From NCBI GenBank assembly GCA_963845755.1, contig CAWJTV010000022.1:64001-128000 (forward strand): DNA of 64,000 nt, read 5' to 3'. The notes below the pieces were generated by a model. The model was given only the letters and a program-made list of their open reading frames with translations, did no database searches and was not told the DNA's origin. Shown here one piece after another: positions 3,964 through 19,966 of the stretch; position 1 is the first letter of the stretch, and each line of letters begins with the position of its first letter. The translations under genes and the position numbers were made by a program. The DNA is from an uncultured Planctomycetota bacterium. GTDB lineage: Bacteria; Planctomycetota; Planctomycetia; Isosphaerales; Isosphaeraceae.

Positions 3964-5046
3964 ATGAGCGAGCTCGATCGCCTGGCGGTCATCGAGGTCG
4001 GTACCCGGGGAATCCGCCTCCTGGTCGTCGAACGCCGCGACCCTCCCGACGGAATGGCGATCCTCCAGAGCCGGGGCGAACTTGGCAATCTCGGGGAGGG
4101 TCTGGACCAGAATGATAGGCGAATGCAGACCGAGAATATCCAGGACAACCTGGACCGGGTCCGTCGATTCCTGCGAATGGCTCAGACCCTGAGTGCGGAT
4201 CGGATCCTCCTGGTCGGCACGCATGTCTTCCGCCGCGCCCGCAATGTGGACGAGTTCTGTGATCACCTTCCCAAGCCGCTGTCGTTGCTCGTCCTGGCGC
4301 CGGAGGAGGAAGCCGTCGGCTCGTTCCTGGCGGTTTGCTGGGGACTTCGCGACGAGAGCTCCACGCGCGGACCACTGGTGGTGATCGACCTGGGCGGGGG
4401 CAGTCTGGAAGTCGTCGCCGGTCTTCAGGGCGACCCACCCCGGCCGATGGCGAGCGTTTCCCTGGGGAGCCTGGGGATCCTCGCGGTGCGGGAGGCCTGG
4501 GCACACGTCGCGGATTCAATGGACCCCGAGGACGGACTTCGCCGCTACCTCGACGCCGAGCTTGGCCGGTCTGCCGGCGCGGTCGCGGCATTGCGAACGC
4601 TCGGGGCAGAAAAGCCGGACGCCTCGACGCTCCTGGTCGCCGGCTTGGGTTCGACGGTGACCGACGCGGCCTGGCTCTTGTCGGGCAGGCCGCTCGCTAC
4701 ATACAAGTCGAAGGAGGTCAACGGCCTGCGGGCGACGCGCGCCGACCTGGAGCGATTGCGGTGCGAAGTCTTGGGAGACGCCCAACAGGGCGAGTCCACT
4801 CGATCGGCGATCTCGCACGATCTCAGGGATCCCCTCGCCCACCAACTGGGCCTGGCGACCTTGGTGGCGGTGATGGACGCCCTGGGTGCGCCGATCATTA
4901 CCGCGTGCGGCACGGGTTTGCGGTTCGGGCTGGCCTACGCGTTTCTCCACGGCATCCCGCTGGCGATGGCGCGTTCCGAACGGACCGCTCCTGACGATCC
5001 GCTCGGACCGGACTTTCTCGGCGAAGGCCTCAAGCCCGGAGATTGA
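3964..5046 (+). CDS. Ppx/GppA phosphatase family protein (divergent)
   Basis: AVIEVGTRGIRLLV, LGEGL, EEEA, VIDLGGGSLEV and GLRFG motifs. Confidence 0.8.
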   Translation: MSELDRLAVIEVGTRGIRLLVVERRDPPDGMAILQSRGELGNLGEGLDQNDRRMQTENIQDNLDRVRRFLRMAQTLSADRILLVGTHVFRRARNVDEFCDHLPKPLSLLVLAPEEEAVGSFLAVCWGLRDESSTRGPLVVIDLGGGSLEVVAGLQGDPPRPMASVSLGSLGILAVREAWAHVADSMDPEDGLRRYLDAELGRSAGAVAALRTLGAEKPDASTLLVAGLGSTVTDAAWLLSGRPLATYKSKEVNGLRATRADLERLRCEVLGDAQQGESTRSAISHDLRDPLAHQLGLATLVAVMDALGAPIITACGTGLRFGLAYAFLHGIPLAMARSERTAPDDPLGPDFLGEGLKPGD

Positions 5047-10813: not shown

Positions 10814-11336
10814 GATTCGACCGTCCCGATGGGGACTCGTGCTTCTCTGAGCCCCGGATTGACGACAGGAATCCGACGGACCCCGGAGTTTCTGTCTCTC
10901 CTTCTCAATCCATGTCCGACCGCCGTCTCACGTACTCAGGAACGCGACCGCCCCGATGTTTCGGAAGGCGGATCCGCACCGGAGGCTGTCCAGCGGCAAG
11001 AGATCTCTCCGGATCTCCGAGGTCACCGGAAGGATGGGCGAGGGCGGACTGATCGACCCGGGAGCGCTTCCCCTGGCTCCATCCTTTCGCCCCGTCAGGG
11101 CATTTCCGGATAGCTTCTCTGGAGGCACAACGTGGTGTTCCGCGCGGCCGATCGCCGGCGGAGTCGCCCGGCTGCGCGACTCGACGCGAAAGGGCGGGGC
11201 CCACTCAGGGCCGGGAGTCAGTCCCTTTTTCGTGGGCCATCTGCCATGCAAGCGAGAACCACCATGGGGTCCGGCGTCGAGTCGGATCGCGGTGTAATGC
11301 AACCTCATGAGGAAACACGAAGCGAGGGGACCGGGA

Positions 11337-12024
11337 ATGTCCACACTATCCTCCGAGGAGAGCGAGCGGGAACTCCTCGAGATGACGAAGGCTTATCTGG
11401 AGTGCCGTTCCCAGGGAATGGATCCCTCTCCGATACTGGTGGAAGCCTGGGAGCGGTTTTATCGGTCTCATGAGCCACGGCTCCGGGCCTTGCTTGAGAA
11501 ATGGCGCCTCTCGGACGCGGACCGGGAGGATTGTCTTCAGGAAGTCTGGGTCGAGGTCGTGGCCCACCTGGGCCATTTCCAGCACGATCCGAGACGCGGT
11601 CGCCTCTCGACGTGGCTCACGACCCTGGCGCGGAACAAGGCGGCGGACTCGATCCGACGTCGGACCCGACATCCCTTCCAGTCCCTCGGGGAGGACACCG
11701 AAGTCCCCCTTGCTGATCCCGTCCTCGGCCCGGAGGCCGATTTCGAGCGGCGCTGGGAGCAGGCCCAGGTAAGGGGCGCCCTCGCCGAACTCGCCGACCA
11801 GGTCCCGGTCTGCAGCTTTCGGGTGCTTTACCTGCGCCTGGATCGAGGAACGTAATGTCGCCGAGATCGCCACCGCTCTGGATCTGACGCCCGAGCAAGT
11901 CCGGTTGCGAGCCCACCGCATGAAGGAGAGATTTCGCGACCTATTCGAGCGTTACATGTACCGGGAGTCCTTCGAATCCAATCCAGACCTGTGGGATGGT
12001 GGAATGCAGAATAATTTCTCATGA
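11337..12024 (+). CDS. ECF sigma-70 factor (frameshift ~11838)
   Basis: Region 2: AWERFY..DREDCLQEVW..LSTWL..LARNKAAD. Region 4 in the second frame: WIEERNVAEIATALDLTPEQVRLRAHRMKERFR, stop at 12022-12024. Confidence 0.85.
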
Positions 12025-12047
12025 AACGTTTACCACTGTTCTGCGTG
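12023..12047 (+). promoter_or_regulatory. Putative ECF-type promoter GAAAC-N16-CGTG upstream of the small peptide gene
   Basis: Matches the general ECF AAC/CGT consensus, is preceded by an AT-rich stretch and overlaps the sigma stop codon. Confidence 0.4.
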
Positions 12048-12193
12048 TAATGAATGGCCGGTTTCCCACGGGTGCAACCCGTTTGACTTCACTCCGGGCG
12101 CACGCGAACCCTTTTTCGCTGACCGCATGCGGTAGCCCCCGGGAAGCCGATGGGCCCATTGAATCAAATCTTGGAACGCGCGGAGGAAATACC

Positions 12194-12394
12194 ATGGCGA
12201 ATTCTCCGGTCAATACCCCTCTGACCATCGCCCTGACCGATGATCAGGTCCAACAGCTCAAGGATAAAATCACGGCTCAACTCGTCGATACGCTCAAGGG
12301 CACGCAGGCTGACACAATCATTTCCCACAGGCCGCAGAGTCAGATAGTTCGGAAGGAAGTCGGTCAATCGGTCGTCGTTGATCCTGAGGCATGA
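12194..12394 (+). CDS. 66-aa peptide, candidate RiPP precursor
   Basis: Strong GGAGG RBS. MANSPVNTPLTIALTDDQVQQLKDKITAQLVDTLKGTQADTIISHRPQSQIVRKEVGQSVVVDPEA. A homologous leader occurs at 15544. Confidence 0.7.
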   Translation: MANSPVNTPLTIALTDDQVQQLKDKITAQLVDTLKGTQADTIISHRPQSQIVRKEVGQSVVVDPEA

Positions 12395-13032
12395 TCGACC
12401 CTTAGAGGAATACGAGATCCAGTGCTCGGGCACTCCTCGGGTACAGCCATTCTGGGTCGCCAAGCAAGAGTTGATCAATCTGAGGACCGATCGCCATCTC
12501 ACTCTTCGTGAGGCTGCTGGGAAAATGGGGCTGGGAGTCTCGGTTGATTATTATCCGTAGCGTTCTCGCGAGCTTGGCTTGCCCCGCCCAGGACTCGGCA
12601 AACGCAAGGAGATCCGAGGCAGACATCTCAAACGAGCAAGTCTGGGATGCTCCAAAGGTCTCGCTCAGCGACCCGCGGATGGTCTTCCGGGCCGGGTCGT
12701 CGAAACTCTCGAGCGCACGCAGGCGGCGACGGTGATCGTCGCCGCCATGCCGTGGGCAATTCGAAGTCCGAGGCGATGGGGACTCTGGCCATCGTGCGGT
12801 CAGCGCCCCGATGAATCTGCGGGAAGCCCGGCTCCCAAGGGGCTGGCCAATCCTTCGCTCGGGCGGCGATGATTCCGAGATTTGGGGCTCTGGAGTCCCT
12901 GAGAAAAGGGGGCGGGCCCCGCAGTCTTCGAGGTGCCTGTCCCCGTCCTCTCAGCAAGATCCAATCGGCAATGTATGCCGCCAAAGACATGATCGGTTAC
13001 TGACATCACAACTCAACAGAGGCACTGGCGCC

Positions 13033-15424
13033 ATGTCTCAGGGATCGGAACCCCTCACAACTGTGTTGAATAATGACATACGCGTATTTGGGTTAACCCA
13101 GATCGACGGCGCAAGGGCGCACCTCGGTGCAGCCATGAGTCGGGCCGGAAGCCCGAAGTCCGTCTGTCTCGTCACGGCCCTCACGGTGACCGATTTCATC
13201 GACCTGGAGCTGACCGCCAACGGAGTCACGACTACGGGAGCGCAGCTCGGTGTGCTGACCCTCGCTGCGATCCTGAGAGAGAAGGGATTTCTGCCCCAGA
13301 TCGTGAACCTGGATGACCTCTTTCTGGAATACATCAAGGGCGGCAGACTCCTGCCCGTGGTGGAAGGGGGAAGAGAAGCCAGCCACGCGCCAGCGAGAAA
13401 TGGAGGCGCCGTCGCGGACTCGCATCCGAACAGTCCGGTCTCCTTCTTCGCGTATACCGTTGAGCACTTGAAGCCGCTCTCATTCGACGTTCTCGGGTTC
13501 AGTTCCATCTGCAGCTCGTACCCACTCACCCTGCGTCTGGCCCGGGAAGTCCGACGATCCAACCCGGATGCGTGGATCATCCTGGGTGGGCCTCAGGCCT
13601 CGGTCGTCGACGTGGCAACGATGCGCGAATTTCCGTGCGTTCAACTTCGTCGTCCGCGGCGAAGCGGACGACACGTTCCCGATTCTCCTGGACCACCTTT
13701 CCGTTCCCGATCCTGGCGGCTGGGAAGGCATGCCGGGCATCACATTCCGACGCGGGGACGACGTGATCCGGAATCCCAACGCCTCGCCCGTCCGCGATCT
13801 CGATTACGTGCCGCTCCCCGCCTTCGACCTCGATGCGAAGATCCGGGAGCGGGATGGTATCCATCTGGAGATCGGACGCGGTTGTCCGTTCACCTGCACC
13901 TTCTGCTCCACCAACGACTTCTTCCGGCGGAGCTTCCGCCTGAAGTTGACGCAGAAGACCATCGAAGAAATGCAGTACCTTCACGAGCAATATGGATTCA
14001 CTTACTTCAGCTTCGTCCACGACATGTACACGGTGGACCGCAAGAAGGTCGTCGAGTTCTGCCAGGGCCTGATCGAACTCGGAAAGCCCTTTACGTGGGG
14101 CTGCAGCGCCCGGACGGACTGCGTCGACGACGAATTGCTTGCACTGATGGCGGCCGCGGGGTGTCGAGGGATTTTCTTCGGGATCGAAACCGGCTCCGAA
14201 CGAATGCAGAAGGTGATCCACAAGAAACTCGACCTGGCCGAGGCCTGGAAACGGATCCAGTGCGCGGACCGACACGGGGTGAAGATGGCGGTCGCCTTGA
14301 TCATCGGCTTCCCGGAGGAGACACGCGACGACCTGAGGGACTCCATCCATTTCTTCATCGAGTCGCTTCGTTACGACCAAGCGAAGCCCCAGATCTCCCT
14401 CCTGGCGCCGCTCGCGGCAACCCCGATCTACGATCGTTACAAAGGACAACTGGTTTTTGATCGCATTTTCTCCTCCATGTGTCATCAGGGCTGGCAGCAG
14501 GATGCCGACGAGCTGGCGTTGATCGAAAGCTATCCGGAAATCTTCCCCGACTTCTACGCGATCCCGCTGACCTGGCTGGAACGCCCCTATCTCAGGGAGT
14601 TGGTGGAGTTCATCATCTATGTAATAGAGTGGTTCCGCTGGCTGCCGCTTGCCCTGCTTCAGGACTCCGGGGACTTCCTTGCGGTTTTCGACCGATGGCG
14701 GAACTGGTTGTCAGGACGAATTGCCAGCGAAGGCGACGGAGAGGCGGGTCGGGCACCTTATTATTCCAATGGGAGCTTCCCCAAGGAGTTCCGGCAGTTC
14801 GTTCAGACTTGCTACCTGGAAGAAATGGCCACGGCGCGGGTCGCAATCGAAACACTGCTACGAACTGGAGACTCGCGCCCGGAAGCCGCACACGACGAAT
14901 CGTCTCGATCGATCGAGGAGACTGACCGGTGGGAAGAGGATTGCGTGCCTTTTCTGCGGAAGGACCTGTGCGTTCAGGAACTCGATGTCAACTACAAGGA
15001 GCTGATTGAAAGCCTGCGGAACAACTGGGACCTCAGCCGGGTCTCGCGACTTGCGACCACGATCGTCTACCGGCCGATGAGAGAGAGGTGCCTGCAGGTG
15101 TGGCAACTCACCCCGCTTTCCGCGACCCTGTTGCGCCTGTGTGACGGCAGGAGAACGATCCACGACGTCGTTCGGGAGTTCTCACTGCTGGATACCGATG
15201 TCGTCGGGATCCCGGCCGAGAAGGTCGTGCTCTTCGGATTGATGCGGCTACGGGATGAAGGATTCATCGGCCTTTCCTCCGGTCCGGTGCCGGAAGAGGA
15301 GCCGAGTTTGGCCGACGGAGCACCGGCGGAGCGGCCGTTTAATCCGGCGATGCTTCAAGCGACCGGTACACAGCAACCTTGGCCCCCGCGCCGAGCAAAT
15401 GAAGGTCTCATGCAGGTCGTTTGA
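13033..15424 (+). CDS. B12-binding radical SAM enzyme with C-terminal PqqD/RRE-like domain (frameshift ~13640)
   Basis: B12-binding domain: DVLGFSSICSSYP..IILGGPQAS..FVVRGEAD. rSAM core: GRGCPFTCTFCS, GCRGIFFGIETGS, IIGFPEET. C-terminal QVWQLTPLSATLLRLCDGRRTIHDVV...LMRLRDEGFI has a winged-helix pattern. Confidence 0.88.
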
Positions 15425-15543
15425 CCCGTCACGAGGGATCGTCAGAAACTGATCCGATCTGCCTTCACTGGCTGCATGTCGTAGCTTCCGGGGAGCAAAC
15501 CGCCGCTAGTGCGTCAGCTCTTGGAAAGCGCGGAGGGAATGCC

Positions 15544-15643
15544 GTGGCAGACGTCCAGGTCAAGGTCCCGGCCAGGCCTCGGACTGTCCGACATGCAGCT
15601 CCAACACCTCGGGGACAAGCTAGAGCGCCTAACGGCTGAGTAG
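15544..15643 (+). pseudogene. Second precursor-like peptide (leader only; +1 frameshift ~15574)
   Basis: GGAGG RBS plus GTG. Removing one base gives MADVQVKVPA(G/S)LGLSDMQLQHLGDKLERLTAE*, with 11 of the first 27 residues identical to the 12194 peptide without gaps. The upstream ~80 nt is also homologous. Confidence 0.6.
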
Positions 15644-15975
15644 CGCAGGCCCCTGGGTGATGCGAATACACCGCCCTGCCCCCCCTTCGAAAGCGGGGAA
15701 AAGAAATGGGCCGGTCCGCTTCAATGGTCCCCCCCTTACGAAGAGGGGGTCAGGGGGAGTTCCCACGCTCTGCGTCGTCGAACGAAAGCCCTCCGAATTT
15801 TATCGAGACCAACGCGGTGATGTGCCCCAACTTGAGCGACATCGCCTACGACCCGGTGGAGCGTGGCGACGTTTGCGATCCGACCCCTGGGCGATCCTTC
15901 GGCGCACGGAACTCTGCCGAGAGGGCGTCATGAGTTTCGGTGACAACCGACCGGTCATCCGGAATCGAAGACGAA

Positions 15976-16026
15976 GACGACGCAGAGCGTCGAGGGCGGC
16001 ATTCCCACGCGGAGCGTGGGAACGAG
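15976..16026. repeat. REP-like element GACGACGCAGAGCGTC...ATTCCCACGCGGAGCGTGGGAACGAG
   Basis: Two hairpins; the 3' arm is identical to that of the 1125-1153 palindrome. Confidence 0.6.
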
Positions 16027-16087
16027 TGATGAGTATGTTTTCCCATCGGGCGCGGAAACAGCCTTCATTTCAGGAGTTGATCCTCTC

Positions 16088-17749
16088 ATGGCCAAGGCGA
16101 ACTACGTCGTCCTTCCCAAGAGTGAACGCAAGATGGTCGCCGGAGCACGGTTGGTTGGACCATCGCATCCCGACGAACTCATGGAAGTGTCGGTGCACAT
16201 CCGGAGGGCCCATGACATTCATGGGGCCGGAGGGTTGCAAGCACGCGACCTGACCCATGAGGAAATGGCGAAACAGTACGGCTCAGACCAGAGTGACCTG
16301 GCAAAGGTCGCCGCCTTCGCCCAGCAACACGGGTTGGTCGTGGTCGAATCCAGTTCGGCCAAAAGGCTCGTGAGACTCTCAGGGACTGTCAAGGCATTCA
16401 GTGAGGCATTTGACGTGAGCCTGGGGCACTACGAGCATCCGAATTTCACGTACCGTGGTCGCACTGGCTCGATCAGCATACCGAAGACCCTCGATGGAAT
16501 CCTCACCGCAGTGCTCGGGCTCGACAACCGTCCTTTTGCCCGGCCCCATTTCATCAGGAGAAAAGAGCATCCTCGCGGCAAGGCTCATCCGGCAGACTCC
16601 TCAGCGAGTTTCTCGGGATTCTCGCCTCTGACGATCGCCGATCTGTACAGCTTCCCTCCGGGCGACGGCACGGGCCAGACGGTCGGGATCATCGAACTGG
16701 GCGGCGGCTTCCGCCCGGGCGATCTGGAGACCTACTTCTCGGGAATCGGCATCACGCCGCCTCCGACGGTGCTGGCGTTCTCGGTGGATAAGGCAACCAA
16801 TAGCCCCGGGACGTTACAGCAACCCGATCCGTCCAACGGCGAAGTGATGCTCGACATCGAGATCATCGGGGCCATCGTCCCGAAAGCGACGATCGTCGTG
16901 TATTTCTCGCCCAATTTGACAGACGCCAACTTCTCCGACGCGGTCCTCGCCGCCGTCCATGATACCGTGAACAAGCCATCGGTGATCTCGATCAGTTGGG
17001 GTGGTCCCGAGGACGAAGCCACCGGGCAGTTCCTGGACGCTTTCAAGACGGCGCTCGAGGACGCTCAGAGTCTCAATATCACCGTTCTCGTCGCTTCGGG
17101 AGACGACGGCGCTGCGGATATGCAACCCACGGGTCTGTTCCCATGGGATGGCAAGGCGCATGTCGATTTCCCCGCGTCGAGCCCGTTGGTGCTTTCGTGC
17201 GGTGCGACCCGAATTGATCTCTCGGGGACAACGCTGGCCGGCGAAGCCGTGTGGAACCAAGGGTTCGCGGATCTCGAGGGGAACAGCTTCGGTTCGGCAG
17301 GTGGCGGCATCAGCGATGTCTTCACCCCGCCACCGTCGTGGCAGGCGAGCCTCACATTGCCCGCCTCGGTGAACGGCGGGCCCCCGGGACGCGGAGTGCC
17401 CGATGTCACCGGCGTTGGGGACCCGGGTTCCGGGTATTTCATCCGCTTCGATGGCGAGGACACCATCACCGGTGGGACCAGCGCCGTGGCCCCGCTCTGG
17501 GCTGGGCTCATCACCCGCATTAACCAGATTCTTGGGAAACCGGTCGGATTCGTGAATGCGACCTTGTATGCCTATCCGAACGCCTTCAACGACATCACCC
17601 TTGGCAGCAACCGGGTTAGCAGCTCCGGCGGAAGCGAGAACCTCGGGTACGATGCCACCAAGGGCTGGGACGCCTGTACCGGCCTGGGCAGCCCAATCGG
17701 TACTGCCGTGCTGGCCGCCCTCCGGTCCGCCGCCGCAAGTCGTCGGTAA
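16088..17749 (+). CDS. S53 family peptidase (sedolisin/kumamolisin-like) with pro-domain
   Basis: Activation domain; catalytic GEVMLDIE, ASGDDG and GGTSAVAPLWAG; C-terminal GWDACTGLGSP. Confidence 0.93.
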   Translation: MAKANYVVLPKSERKMVAGARLVGPSHPDELMEVSVHIRRAHDIHGAGGLQARDLTHEEMAKQYGSDQSDLAKVAAFAQQHGLVVVESSSAKRLVRLSGTVKAFSEAFDVSLGHYEHPNFTYRGRTGSISIPKTLDGILTAVLGLDNRPFARPHFIRRKEHPRGKAHPADSSASFSGFSPLTIADLYSFPPGDGTGQTVGIIELGGGFRPGDLETYFSGIGITPPPTVLAFSVDKATNSPGTLQQPDPSNGEVMLDIEIIGAIVPKATIVVYFSPNLTDANFSDAVLAAVHDTVNKPSVISISWGGPEDEATGQFLDAFKTALEDAQSLNITVLVASGDDGAADMQPTGLFPWDGKAHVDFPASSPLVLSCGATRIDLSGTTLAGEAVWNQGFADLEGNSFGSAGGGISDVFTPPPSWQASLTLPASVNGGPPGRGVPDVTGVGDPGSGYFIRFDGEDTITGGTSAVAPLWAGLITRINQILGKPVGFVNATLYAYPNAFNDITLGSNRVSSSGGSENLGYDATKGWDACTGLGSPIGTAVLAALRSAAASRR

Positions 17750-18540: not shown

Positions 18541-19966
18541 ATGACCGATCCGCCCATCGACTACGCCGATGTGCAGGGGACGATCCTCCGTGGCTACCGC
18601 GTGGATCTGGCGCGCCACTTCATCCTCGAGATTATCGATGCCGCCGGCGCAAAGGCGCTGATCGGCTCGATGGTCAACGGCAGTCCGGGGATCCCGCAAA
18701 TCAGCACCACGGCACGAGGGGCCTCGAAGCCCGAGTCGTTCGTGAATATCGGGTTCACGTGCCCCGGGCTGGCGAAATTGGGCCTGACGGCGGCTCAACT
18801 CGCGACCTTCGACCTGGGATTTCAGCGCGGGGCGACCTCCCCGGTCACCGCCGGGCTCGTCGGCGACGTGGGCGAGAGTGCGCCGGCACAATGGATCGGC
18901 GGGCTCGCCGACGGTACGGCGGTGCATGCGGTGCTCAGCCTCTGGGTGACCCAGGACCCGGCGGTCCTGGAGGGCGTGACGGCAACCCTGCGCAGCGTTC
19001 GTCGGCCGCATGAAGGAGCTTTCGTCGCATGACGCCCGGGCGCTGAGCGACAATCGGGTCCATTTCGGTTACCGAGACAGCATCGCGCAGCCCACCATCG
19101 CCGGCGCACCACCTCGGAAGTGTCCCGTGCCCGACGACCAGCCCGTCGTGAGCACCGGGGAATTCCTCCTCGGCTATCTCAACGAGTCCAATGCCACCTA
19201 CGCGGTCACGCCGGTCGAACTCTCCTTGAATAGCAGTTATTCGTCGTTCCGCATCCTGGAACAAGATGTGGAGGGATTCGAAGCGTTCCTGATCAAGTAC
19301 GCGGCCCAGCTCAAAATCGACCCCGAGACCCTGGCCGCGAAAGTCTGCGGGCGCTGGCGCAATGGCAATCCGTTGGAGTTGATGCCCGTCGAGGCCGGTC
19401 AACCCTTACCACTGGACCGACTCAACGACTTCATGTATGTCAACACCGATCCGAAAACGGACGATACCCTCGGCCTGAAATGCCCGATCGGGTCGCACAT
19501 CCGCCGCAACAACCCGCGCGACGGCGCGGTGGTCGGCGCCGGCTCCACGCATCACCGCATCGTGAGGCGTGCCATGCCCTATGGCCCCGACTACGATCCC
19601 CAGCATCCCGATCCTGCCCCCCGCGGTCTGATCGGTCACTTCATCAACGGCAGCATCACCAATCAGTTCGAGTTCTTGATGGGCCAGTGGGATAATACCT
19701 CGACGTTCGTCAAGTCCGCCCCGGGGATCGACCCCCAGTGCCCGGGCAACGCGGTCCTCAACATCAGCGGGGACGACGTGTTCCTGGGCGTCAACGACCC
19801 ATCGAGCAGCTCGTTCACGGTCGCGGGTTGCGGGAACGGCGGCAAGGGCAATTCCACGATTACCGGCTTCGGCCGCTTGATCACGACGCGAGGCGGCGTC
19901 TATTGCTTCCTGCCCAGCATCTCGGGCCTGAAGTATCTCGCCAAGCTTCCCGCTCCACCCGGCTAA
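18541..19966 (+). CDS. Dyp-type heme peroxidase (frameshift ~19000)
   Basis: DVQGTILRGY, HFGYRDSIAQP, GEFLLGY, CPIGSHIRRNNPR, HRIVRRAMPYG, QFEF and TRGGVYCFLPS. Confidence 0.9.

Follow-up and report, generated by a model that had tools for sequence, protein, structure and literature searches.

Organization of the precursor–enzyme locus

The window, the whole 64,000-nt stretch of DNA that was analysed, carries a precursor peptide gene, a B12-binding radical SAM enzyme gene and an incomplete second precursor copy, all on the forward strand. An ECF-type sigma factor gene (11307-12024, +; Pfam Sigma70_r2), which is split in the assembly by an extra C at 11837, lies at the upstream end of the locus. 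Precursor gene 1 (12194-12394, +) is intact and encodes a peptide of 66 residues, a leader followed by a core. Its start is ATG 12194, a correction to the initial annotation, and it is preceded by a 5' untranslated stretch with a ribosome-binding site (12115-12193, +). Between precursor gene 1 and the enzyme gene are located a segment that looks like a decayed third precursor copy (12636-12743, +, perhaps from ~12611) and a dispersed hairpin repeat (12893-12947) with up to 52 genomic copies. The enzyme gene (13033-15424, +; Pfam B12-binding and Radical_SAM) is split in the assembly by an extra T at 13641 and encodes an RRE-like recognition domain at the C-terminus of its product.

The second precursor copy, hereafter copy 2, follows the enzyme gene. 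It is composed of an upstream part, a 5' untranslated stretch with the ribosome-binding site GGAGGG (15464-15543, +), and a coding part, a GTG start with the first 26 leader codons (15544-15622, +), which begins 120 nt past the stop codon of the enzyme gene. A composite block of dispersed repeats (15619-16030) takes the place of the rest of copy 2, and a sedolisin (S53) peptidase gene (16088-17749, +; assigned by Pfam) comes next. No Rfam family was found in 11900-16200, where the one match (E 0.46) falls on a repeat.

A two-gene cassette of peptide and radical SAM enzyme

The enzyme contains a B12-binding domain (PF02310) and a radical SAM domain (PF04055) with the Cys motif CX3CX2C (CPFTCTFC), and its C-terminus matches the recognition protein ApyI at E 1e-7; two of its relatives carry PF05402 (PqqD). 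With a B12-binding domain, a Cys triad and a recognition domain, it has the features of a class B (cobalamin-dependent) peptide radical SAM enzyme, of which the chemistry is predicted. The best curated NCBIfam match is ApyD at 277-332 bits, followed by ApyI at 27-31 bits, both below the cut-off. Against NF050148 (rSAM_ApyD), for which the cut-off is 750 bits, the C-terminal 618 residues of the window's enzyme score 277 and the full-length relative P0001 scores 332; values so far below the cut-off indicate that the enzyme is not an ApyD equivalog.

A phmmer search with peptide 1 against 1.84 billion cluster representatives returned five matches, including P0121 and P0125. P0121 has 64 residues, is 59% identical to peptide 1 (E 1e-14) and is the orthologue of copy 1. 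P0001 and P0121 are encoded on one 5,397-nt contig and P0125 on a contig of 3,546 nt; neither contig was among the loci returned by our metagenome scan. The other three matches, P0122 to P0124, were set aside as relatives, being long proteins matched in 4-6 stretches (P0124, for example, is a repetitive protein of 261 residues).

Homologues of the enzyme are numerous, 1789 of the 8000 candidates scored matching at E 1e-10 or better. We collected 80 genome and 80 metagenome loci by enzyme homology alone, the genome relatives coming from an alignment-based scan (a single-protein scan returned none). These loci belong mostly to Acidobacteriota, with some from Streptomyces, Kitasatospora, Bradyrhizobium and Hoeflea. 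Iteration from peptide 1, P0121 and P0125 yielded a peptide profile that detects 122 peptides over the 160 loci, all upstream on the enzyme strand, plus one on the opposite strand. Upstream sequence of 900 bp or more is available for 135 loci; at least one peptide is present at 104 of them, and nine have two in tandem. Examples of the cassette among loci L014-L173 include L014:5136-5333, L062:5245-5442 and the pair L095:3823-4008 and 4123-4320. The opposite-strand match (L089:2747-2824, minus) is a convergent copy just past a partial enzyme match on a short contig, and perhaps belongs to a second cassette.

The peptides share the leader consensus ..IP.DLGLT..Q...L...F..QLVETL.G, whereas their C-terminal parts, the cores, vary widely, many being Val- and Ile-rich with runs of these residues. 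Precursor gene 1 matches the family HMM at E 5e-13. None of peptide 1, P0121 and P0125 matches an NCBIfam model, and peptide 1 matches no Pfam family. A literature search over titles and the beginnings of abstracts, covering journals other than subscription ones, found no description of the peptide family, which may still have been published. Judged by sequence, the peptide family is genuine. The initial annotation had called gene 1 a precursor and taken copy 2 as independent support; the call is strongly supported, mainly by the upstream peptides at the 104 loci, but copy 2 adds little beyond what the relatives provide.

The flanking genes differ among eight loci scanned against Pfam, and the unit therefore consists of the peptide(s) and the enzyme. 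A wider conserved cluster containing the sigma factor, the sedolisin and a DyP peroxidase was rejected, no homologue being present in the 160 related loci; for the sedolisin this holds at E 1e-5 or better.

The predicted fold of the recognition domain with peptide 1 scores 0.53, as compared with 0.08 for the best control. This lends weak support to an interaction of the two: the mark used is reached by 116 of 157 solved complexes and by 2 of 215 mismatches, and scores of 0.60 or below include only 18 of those solved complexes together with both mismatches. Over three fold runs the contacts agree in at least 63%, and the pLDDT of the partner is at least 53. Enzyme and leader peptide together form a very common and apparently uncharacterised two-gene cassette, which is a better experimental target than the copy that lies downstream.

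Copy 2 is homologous to precursor gene 1

At copy 2, GTG 15544 is preceded by GGAGGG with a spacer of 6 nt. The first frame reads VADVQVKVPA (15544-15573), and the next frame reads LGLSDMQLQHLGDKLERLTAE followed by TAG (15578-15643). Removal of one base within GCCAGGC (15571-15577) joins the two, exactly as the initial annotation had described for a base near 15574.

The DNA of the two copies is clearly related. When 12100-12400 is compared by blastn with the whole 14.27-Mb genome on both strands, the best non-self match is 15464-15618, which spans 157 nt with 68% identity and 6 gaps (E 3.7e-12); the second-best non-self match has an E of 0.55, leaving copy 2 as the sole significant one genome-wide. 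The pair is also the top direct repeat within 11000-17000, and a MAFFT alignment of the two places a one-base gap where it is expected. The homology, which had been proposed for the leader, also covers the 5' untranslated stretch and starts ~80 nt 5' of the start codon: 12115-12193 and 15464-15543 share 69% identical columns and the coding parts 62%, as compared with 51% for flanking controls of equal length. Upstream similarity of this kind, beyond the ribosome-binding site, does not extend to the relatives. In addition, copy 2 contains an inverted repeat (15471-15493 / 15577-15599), for which no counterpart is seen by eye in copy 1.

At the protein level, the read-through of copy 2, with X at the break, aligns without gaps to peptide 1 with 11 of 26 residues identical. 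Its Smith-Waterman score is 53, a value reached by none of 5000 shuffles (maximum 47, z 7.7). The shuffled-control comparison thus bears out the gapless leader alignment proposed initially. Without frame correction the pieces of copy 2 score 36, against a background of 37 in the window, and copy 2, being divided by the frame break, is not reported at E 10 or better in a tblastn of peptide 1 against its own genome. These two results could be taken to mean that the similarity arises by chance or base composition and that there is no second copy. They show instead that the frame-corrected reading is both necessary and correct; the genome-wide DNA match, the shuffles and the agreement with an independent database peptide described below refute the chance explanation, to which we assign practically no probability.

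An independent comparison is provided by P0125, which has 66 residues and begins VADVQIKVPASLGLSDEQLQQLGDKL, its first residue being V (GTG) as in copy 2. The read-through of copy 2 is identical to it at 22 of 26 positions when A 15574 is dropped and at 23 of 26 when one G is dropped. Copy 2 is therefore a second, older type of precursor, which exists at full length elsewhere, and a true paralogue of the precursor leader, as first suggested. This match to the P0125 type led us to reject copy 2 as a recent partial duplicate of copy 1. Moreover, P0121 is a separate orthologue of copy 1, which places the divergence of the two types before that of these organisms. A contig of a soil metagenome study (run X2) aligned to 15514-15603 carries a diverged copy 2, which has ~5 differences over the 30 nt that follow 15572 and stays in frame. 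This peptide type, together with a near-identical upstream stretch, is thus also present in a related organism or locus.

The family HMM, which has 47 positions, matches copy 2 at positions 1-24 only, in two pieces. Copy 2 possesses the first half of the leader, with its beta-branched residues, P, LGL[ST] and the spacing of Q and L. The second half (F..QLVETL.G, HMM positions 25-47) has no match in any frame of 15425-16090.

One-base surpluses in the assembly

Three frameshifts occur within 4 kb, in the sigma factor gene at ~11837, in the radical SAM gene at ~13641 and in copy 2 at 15574-15576. The surplus bases are all located in two-base runs, CC, TT and GG, respectively. Short-read contigs of the soil metagenome study were aligned to 11300-16100 at a depth of only 2-3. 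The contigs that are free of the surplus bases differ from the window at 0-1 positions per 151 nt, and these same-strain contigs cover 11837 and 13641, leaving 15573-15577 uncovered. One such contig is a base shorter at 11837, and a second one is a base shorter at 13641. Removal of the base at 11837 gives a sigma factor of 238 residues with no internal stop, and removal of that at 13641 gives an enzyme of 796 residues, also with no internal stop, which aligns end to end with P0126 (796 residues) with 658 of 796 positions identical. The frameshifts at 11837 and 13641 are assembly artefacts.

The frame of copy 2 is interrupted in the assembly by one surplus base, at a site that no same-strain read covers. 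One diverged contig of the same soil study matches 15514-15572 with 3 differences and then has one base fewer, continuing in frame (...VPAGFELSDEQLQ). The shorter form in this relative, together with the two neighbouring errors, makes it quite likely that the surplus base is an over-called G at 15575-15576 and that this +1 frameshift, too, is an artefact of the assembly. The real sequence therefore probably has an open frame of 32 codons.

The assembly thus contains one-base over-calls in short runs, and apparent frameshifts or pseudogenes in it (the sigma factor, the radical SAM enzyme and probably copy 2) are suspect where reads are lacking. Farther downstream, the N-terminal domain of a DyP-type peroxidase ends within 18541-19032, and an overlapping long ORF (19010-19966) lies in another frame. 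The change of frame here may be another one-base assembly error.

Copy 2 appears truncated at dispersed repeats

Copy 2 ceases to resemble peptide 1, P0125 and the family profile past ...GDKL, at ~15619-15622. Dispersed repeats set in at the same place: when 15400-16200 is compared with the genome by blastn, the coverage climbs between 15618 and 15622 from 0-6 genomic copies to 24-40, and 31 of 200 repeat matches start at 15619-15622. Since the homology ends where the repeat starts, the last six codons of the ORF and its TAG (15641-15643) are repeat DNA and lie outside copy 2, a correction to the extent first assigned. The earlier statement that copy 2 lacks a core agrees with this boundary, the ORF stopping six codons past the homology, inside the repeat.

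The repeat block is 410 bp long and composite, with ~40-62 genomic copies of 15619-15762, 7-11 of 15763-15975 and ~118-126 of 15976-16030. Inverted repeats are present inside it (15759-15780 / 15976-16023), and metagenome contigs pile up at 15978-16028 with many different flanks, forming loose ends. The repeat families, which have from 7 to ~126 copies in the 14.27-Mb genome, form hairpins, occur on both strands and cluster in intergenic DNA. From ~16031 the sequence is unique and continues into the sedolisin gene with no trace of the peptide. Moreover, in a tblastn with P0125, residues 27-66 have no match past 15622 and, elsewhere in the assembly, match only the segment at 12636-12743; as the genome is 87.9% complete, the missing 3' part could conceivably lie elsewhere.

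These observations bear on the alternative that the organism has the complete gene and that a misjoin or collapse of the assembly at repeats produced the truncation. In its favour, the sequence at the break is highly repeated, 15573-15970 is spanned by no short contig, and one-base errors are proven at 11837 and 13641. However, one-base errors cannot yield a 410-bp replacement, the block is flanked on both sides by unique sequence within one 189.6-kb contig, and residues 27-66 of the P0125 type are encoded in no frame past 15622 and nowhere else in the 14.27-Mb assembly as an intact continuation. We consider an assembly origin of the truncation very unlikely, and the truncation appears real. 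Among the fates proposed in the initial annotation (a relic, a leader-only decoy or activator, or a copy truncated by an insertion), an insertion involving REP-like hairpins fits best. Nevertheless, an intact gene was not simply interrupted by an insertion, as its 3' part is gone.

A decayed segment at the canonical precursor position

The segment between precursor gene 1 and the enzyme gene (ASLGCSKGLAQRPADGLPGRVVETLERTQAATVIVA) aligns without gaps to residues 10-45 of P0125 with a score of 62. A frameshift-tolerant alignment gives a score of 64, whereas 250 random genomic windows reach 45 at most. Its DNA is similar to copy 1 over just 28 nt, which is not significant genome-wide, and P0125 resembles the segment more than copy 1 does. 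At the position of the start codon it has GAG, and ~7 nt are absent before the ASLG motif. No reads cover 12636-12743. From its sequence, this segment looks like a decayed precursor at the canonical position.

Copy 2 and this relic were also considered as the two halves of one split gene. Both of them span residues 10-26 of P0125 and are therefore separate copies, and the split-gene reading was rejected.

The downstream position is peculiar to the window among the loci examined

Among related loci that contain the 3' end of the enzyme gene and at least 300 bp downstream, none of 122 has a peptide on the enzyme strand past the enzyme gene. Since copy 2 would itself go undetected in this full-profile search, the downstream test was repeated at the level of fragments over 600 bp. 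No domain scoring at least 7 was found on the enzyme strand at the 122 loci, where copy 2 itself scores 7.5, nor was any found on the opposite strand (0 of 122); a control region farther off gave 3 domains across 100 loci. Copy 2 thus departs from the family position, upstream of the enzyme on the same strand, in which the 160 loci have 122 peptides upstream and none downstream. The downstream site is therefore peculiar to the window among the loci examined and is not a hallmark of the family.

This disagrees with the earlier view that peptides on both sides of the enzyme are typical of such systems, the extra copies of the relatives being in tandem upstream (9 loci). Nor does a full-length orthologue, as envisaged there, occupy the position after the enzyme at any of the 122 loci.

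Among the 40 nearest relatives of the organism, four have an enzyme match at E 1e-20 or better, all distant (26-32% identity), and none of 400 genomes of the same phylum (G001-G400) has one at E 1e-80 or better. The nearest named relatives of the enzyme are Acidobacteriota. The lack of a close match in the phylum, together with these relatives, suggests that the cassette was acquired horizontally.

Copy 2 as a probable remnant of a second precursor paralogue

The sequence at 15464-15622 is probably what remains of an old second paralogue of the precursor gene that has lost its 3' part, a non-functional pseudogene fused to repeat DNA. It would belong to a two-gene cassette for peptide modification, with one or more leader-bearing peptides and a B12-dependent radical SAM enzyme fused to a recognition domain. 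Copy 2 would represent the 5' part of the second paralogue, comprising its untranslated leader, ribosome-binding site, GTG and 26 codons. The remaining leader and the whole core would have been lost, with the 410-bp repeat block now abutting the break and contributing six unrelated codons and a stop. Its product would be without the second leader half and the core, and we therefore read copy 2 as a non-functional remnant and not as a substrate. The homology and how far it reaches, the boundary with the repeats and the errors at 11837 and 13641 are shown by the data, whereas the artefactual nature of the surplus base in copy 2, the loss of function and the manner in which the remnant came to lie downstream are inferred. 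The preservation of the remnant is good: it shares 23 of 26 residues with P0125 and retains its ribosome-binding site and start codon. The relic at 12636-12743, in contrast, has decayed heavily. This difference means that the truncation happened recently or that the remnant is still under selection.

Good preservation is also what would be seen if the 32-codon leader-only ORF were expressed and acted in trans on the recognition domain, as a decoy damping modification or as an activator. The intact ribosome-binding site and GTG, a frame that is probably open when the surplus base is left out as a likely artefact, the 23/26 similarity to P0125 and an untranslated stretch whose conservation equals or exceeds that of the coding part (69% vs 62%) are all compatible with expression, and the predicted fold with peptide 1 (0.53 vs 0.08) adds weak support. 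On the other hand, none of the 122 related loci has a leader-like fragment downstream, so this arrangement lacks conservation; copy 2 is also without the second conserved leader half, and the tail of its ORF consists of repeat DNA. An expressed, acting leader-only ORF is thus unlikely. Its most specific form, a natural 'leader in trans' in which the putative 32-residue peptide binds the recognition domain and blocks or primes modification of the upstream precursor, is one in which we place very little confidence.

Alternatively, the promoter and untranslated stretch of the remnant might now drive the sedolisin peptidase and place it under the same control as precursor 1. The peptidase gene is indeed the next one on the same strand, and the untranslated stretch is conserved between the two copies. 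Against this, the 410-bp block of hairpin repeats lies in between, no sigma-70-type promoter was found in 11900-16100, the peptidase is linked to the cassette at none of the 160 related loci, and the upstream similarity of the copies beyond the ribosome-binding site does not extend to the relatives. A regulatory role of this kind is quite unlikely.

A truncated, non-functional paralogue fused to repeats thus remains our preferred reading of copy 2. Together with the relic at 12636-12743, it would indicate that the precursor paralogues near this one enzyme have turned over, and dispersed repeats mark the break.

Comparison with known systems

Some RiPP clusters, such as those of lanthipeptides and cyanobactins, contain several precursor paralogues per enzyme, which are conserved in the leader and variable in the core and are subject to turnover, some of them being decayed. 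The nine of 135 related loci with two tandem precursors resemble these multi-precursor clusters. In contrast, the extra copy of the window follows the enzyme gene, breaks off within the leader and continues directly into repeat DNA. The repeats themselves are similar to REP/MITE-like intergenic repeats, being short hairpin units present on both strands in tens to more than 100 copies.

The aminopyruvatide system of Burkholderia thailandensis (ApyA/ApyD) is similar in the architecture of the enzyme. ApyD is described as a B12-dependent radical SAM enzyme with an RRE, which methylates the beta-carbon of a tyrosine in a leader-bearing precursor (PMC10635010), and the window's enzyme likewise combines cobalamin, radical SAM and recognition domains. 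Its best NCBIfam match is ApyD itself, and its C-terminus matches ApyI. Unlike the Apy system, the eight related loci scanned against Pfam contain no P450, MNIO or ApyS-type partner. Truncated paralogues of the ApyD substrate gene, for comparison with copy 2, are not described in the accessible part of that report (PMC10635010).

The clavusporin system of Streptomyces clavuligerus (MpcA/MpcB/MpcC) provides a second comparison. In this system a B12 radical SAM enzyme introduces many beta-methyl groups, on Val, Ile, Thr and Pro, into a hydrophobic peptide in a leader-dependent manner (PMC10849626). MpcB has a CX7CX2C motif and requires the DUF5825 partner MpcC. The window's enzyme instead carries CX3CX2C together with a fused recognition domain, and none of the 42 ORFs of the eight related loci scanned against Pfam matches DUF5825. 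A likeness lies in the substrate: many cores of the window's peptide family are rich in Val and Ile, residues that are among those methylated in the clavusporin system.
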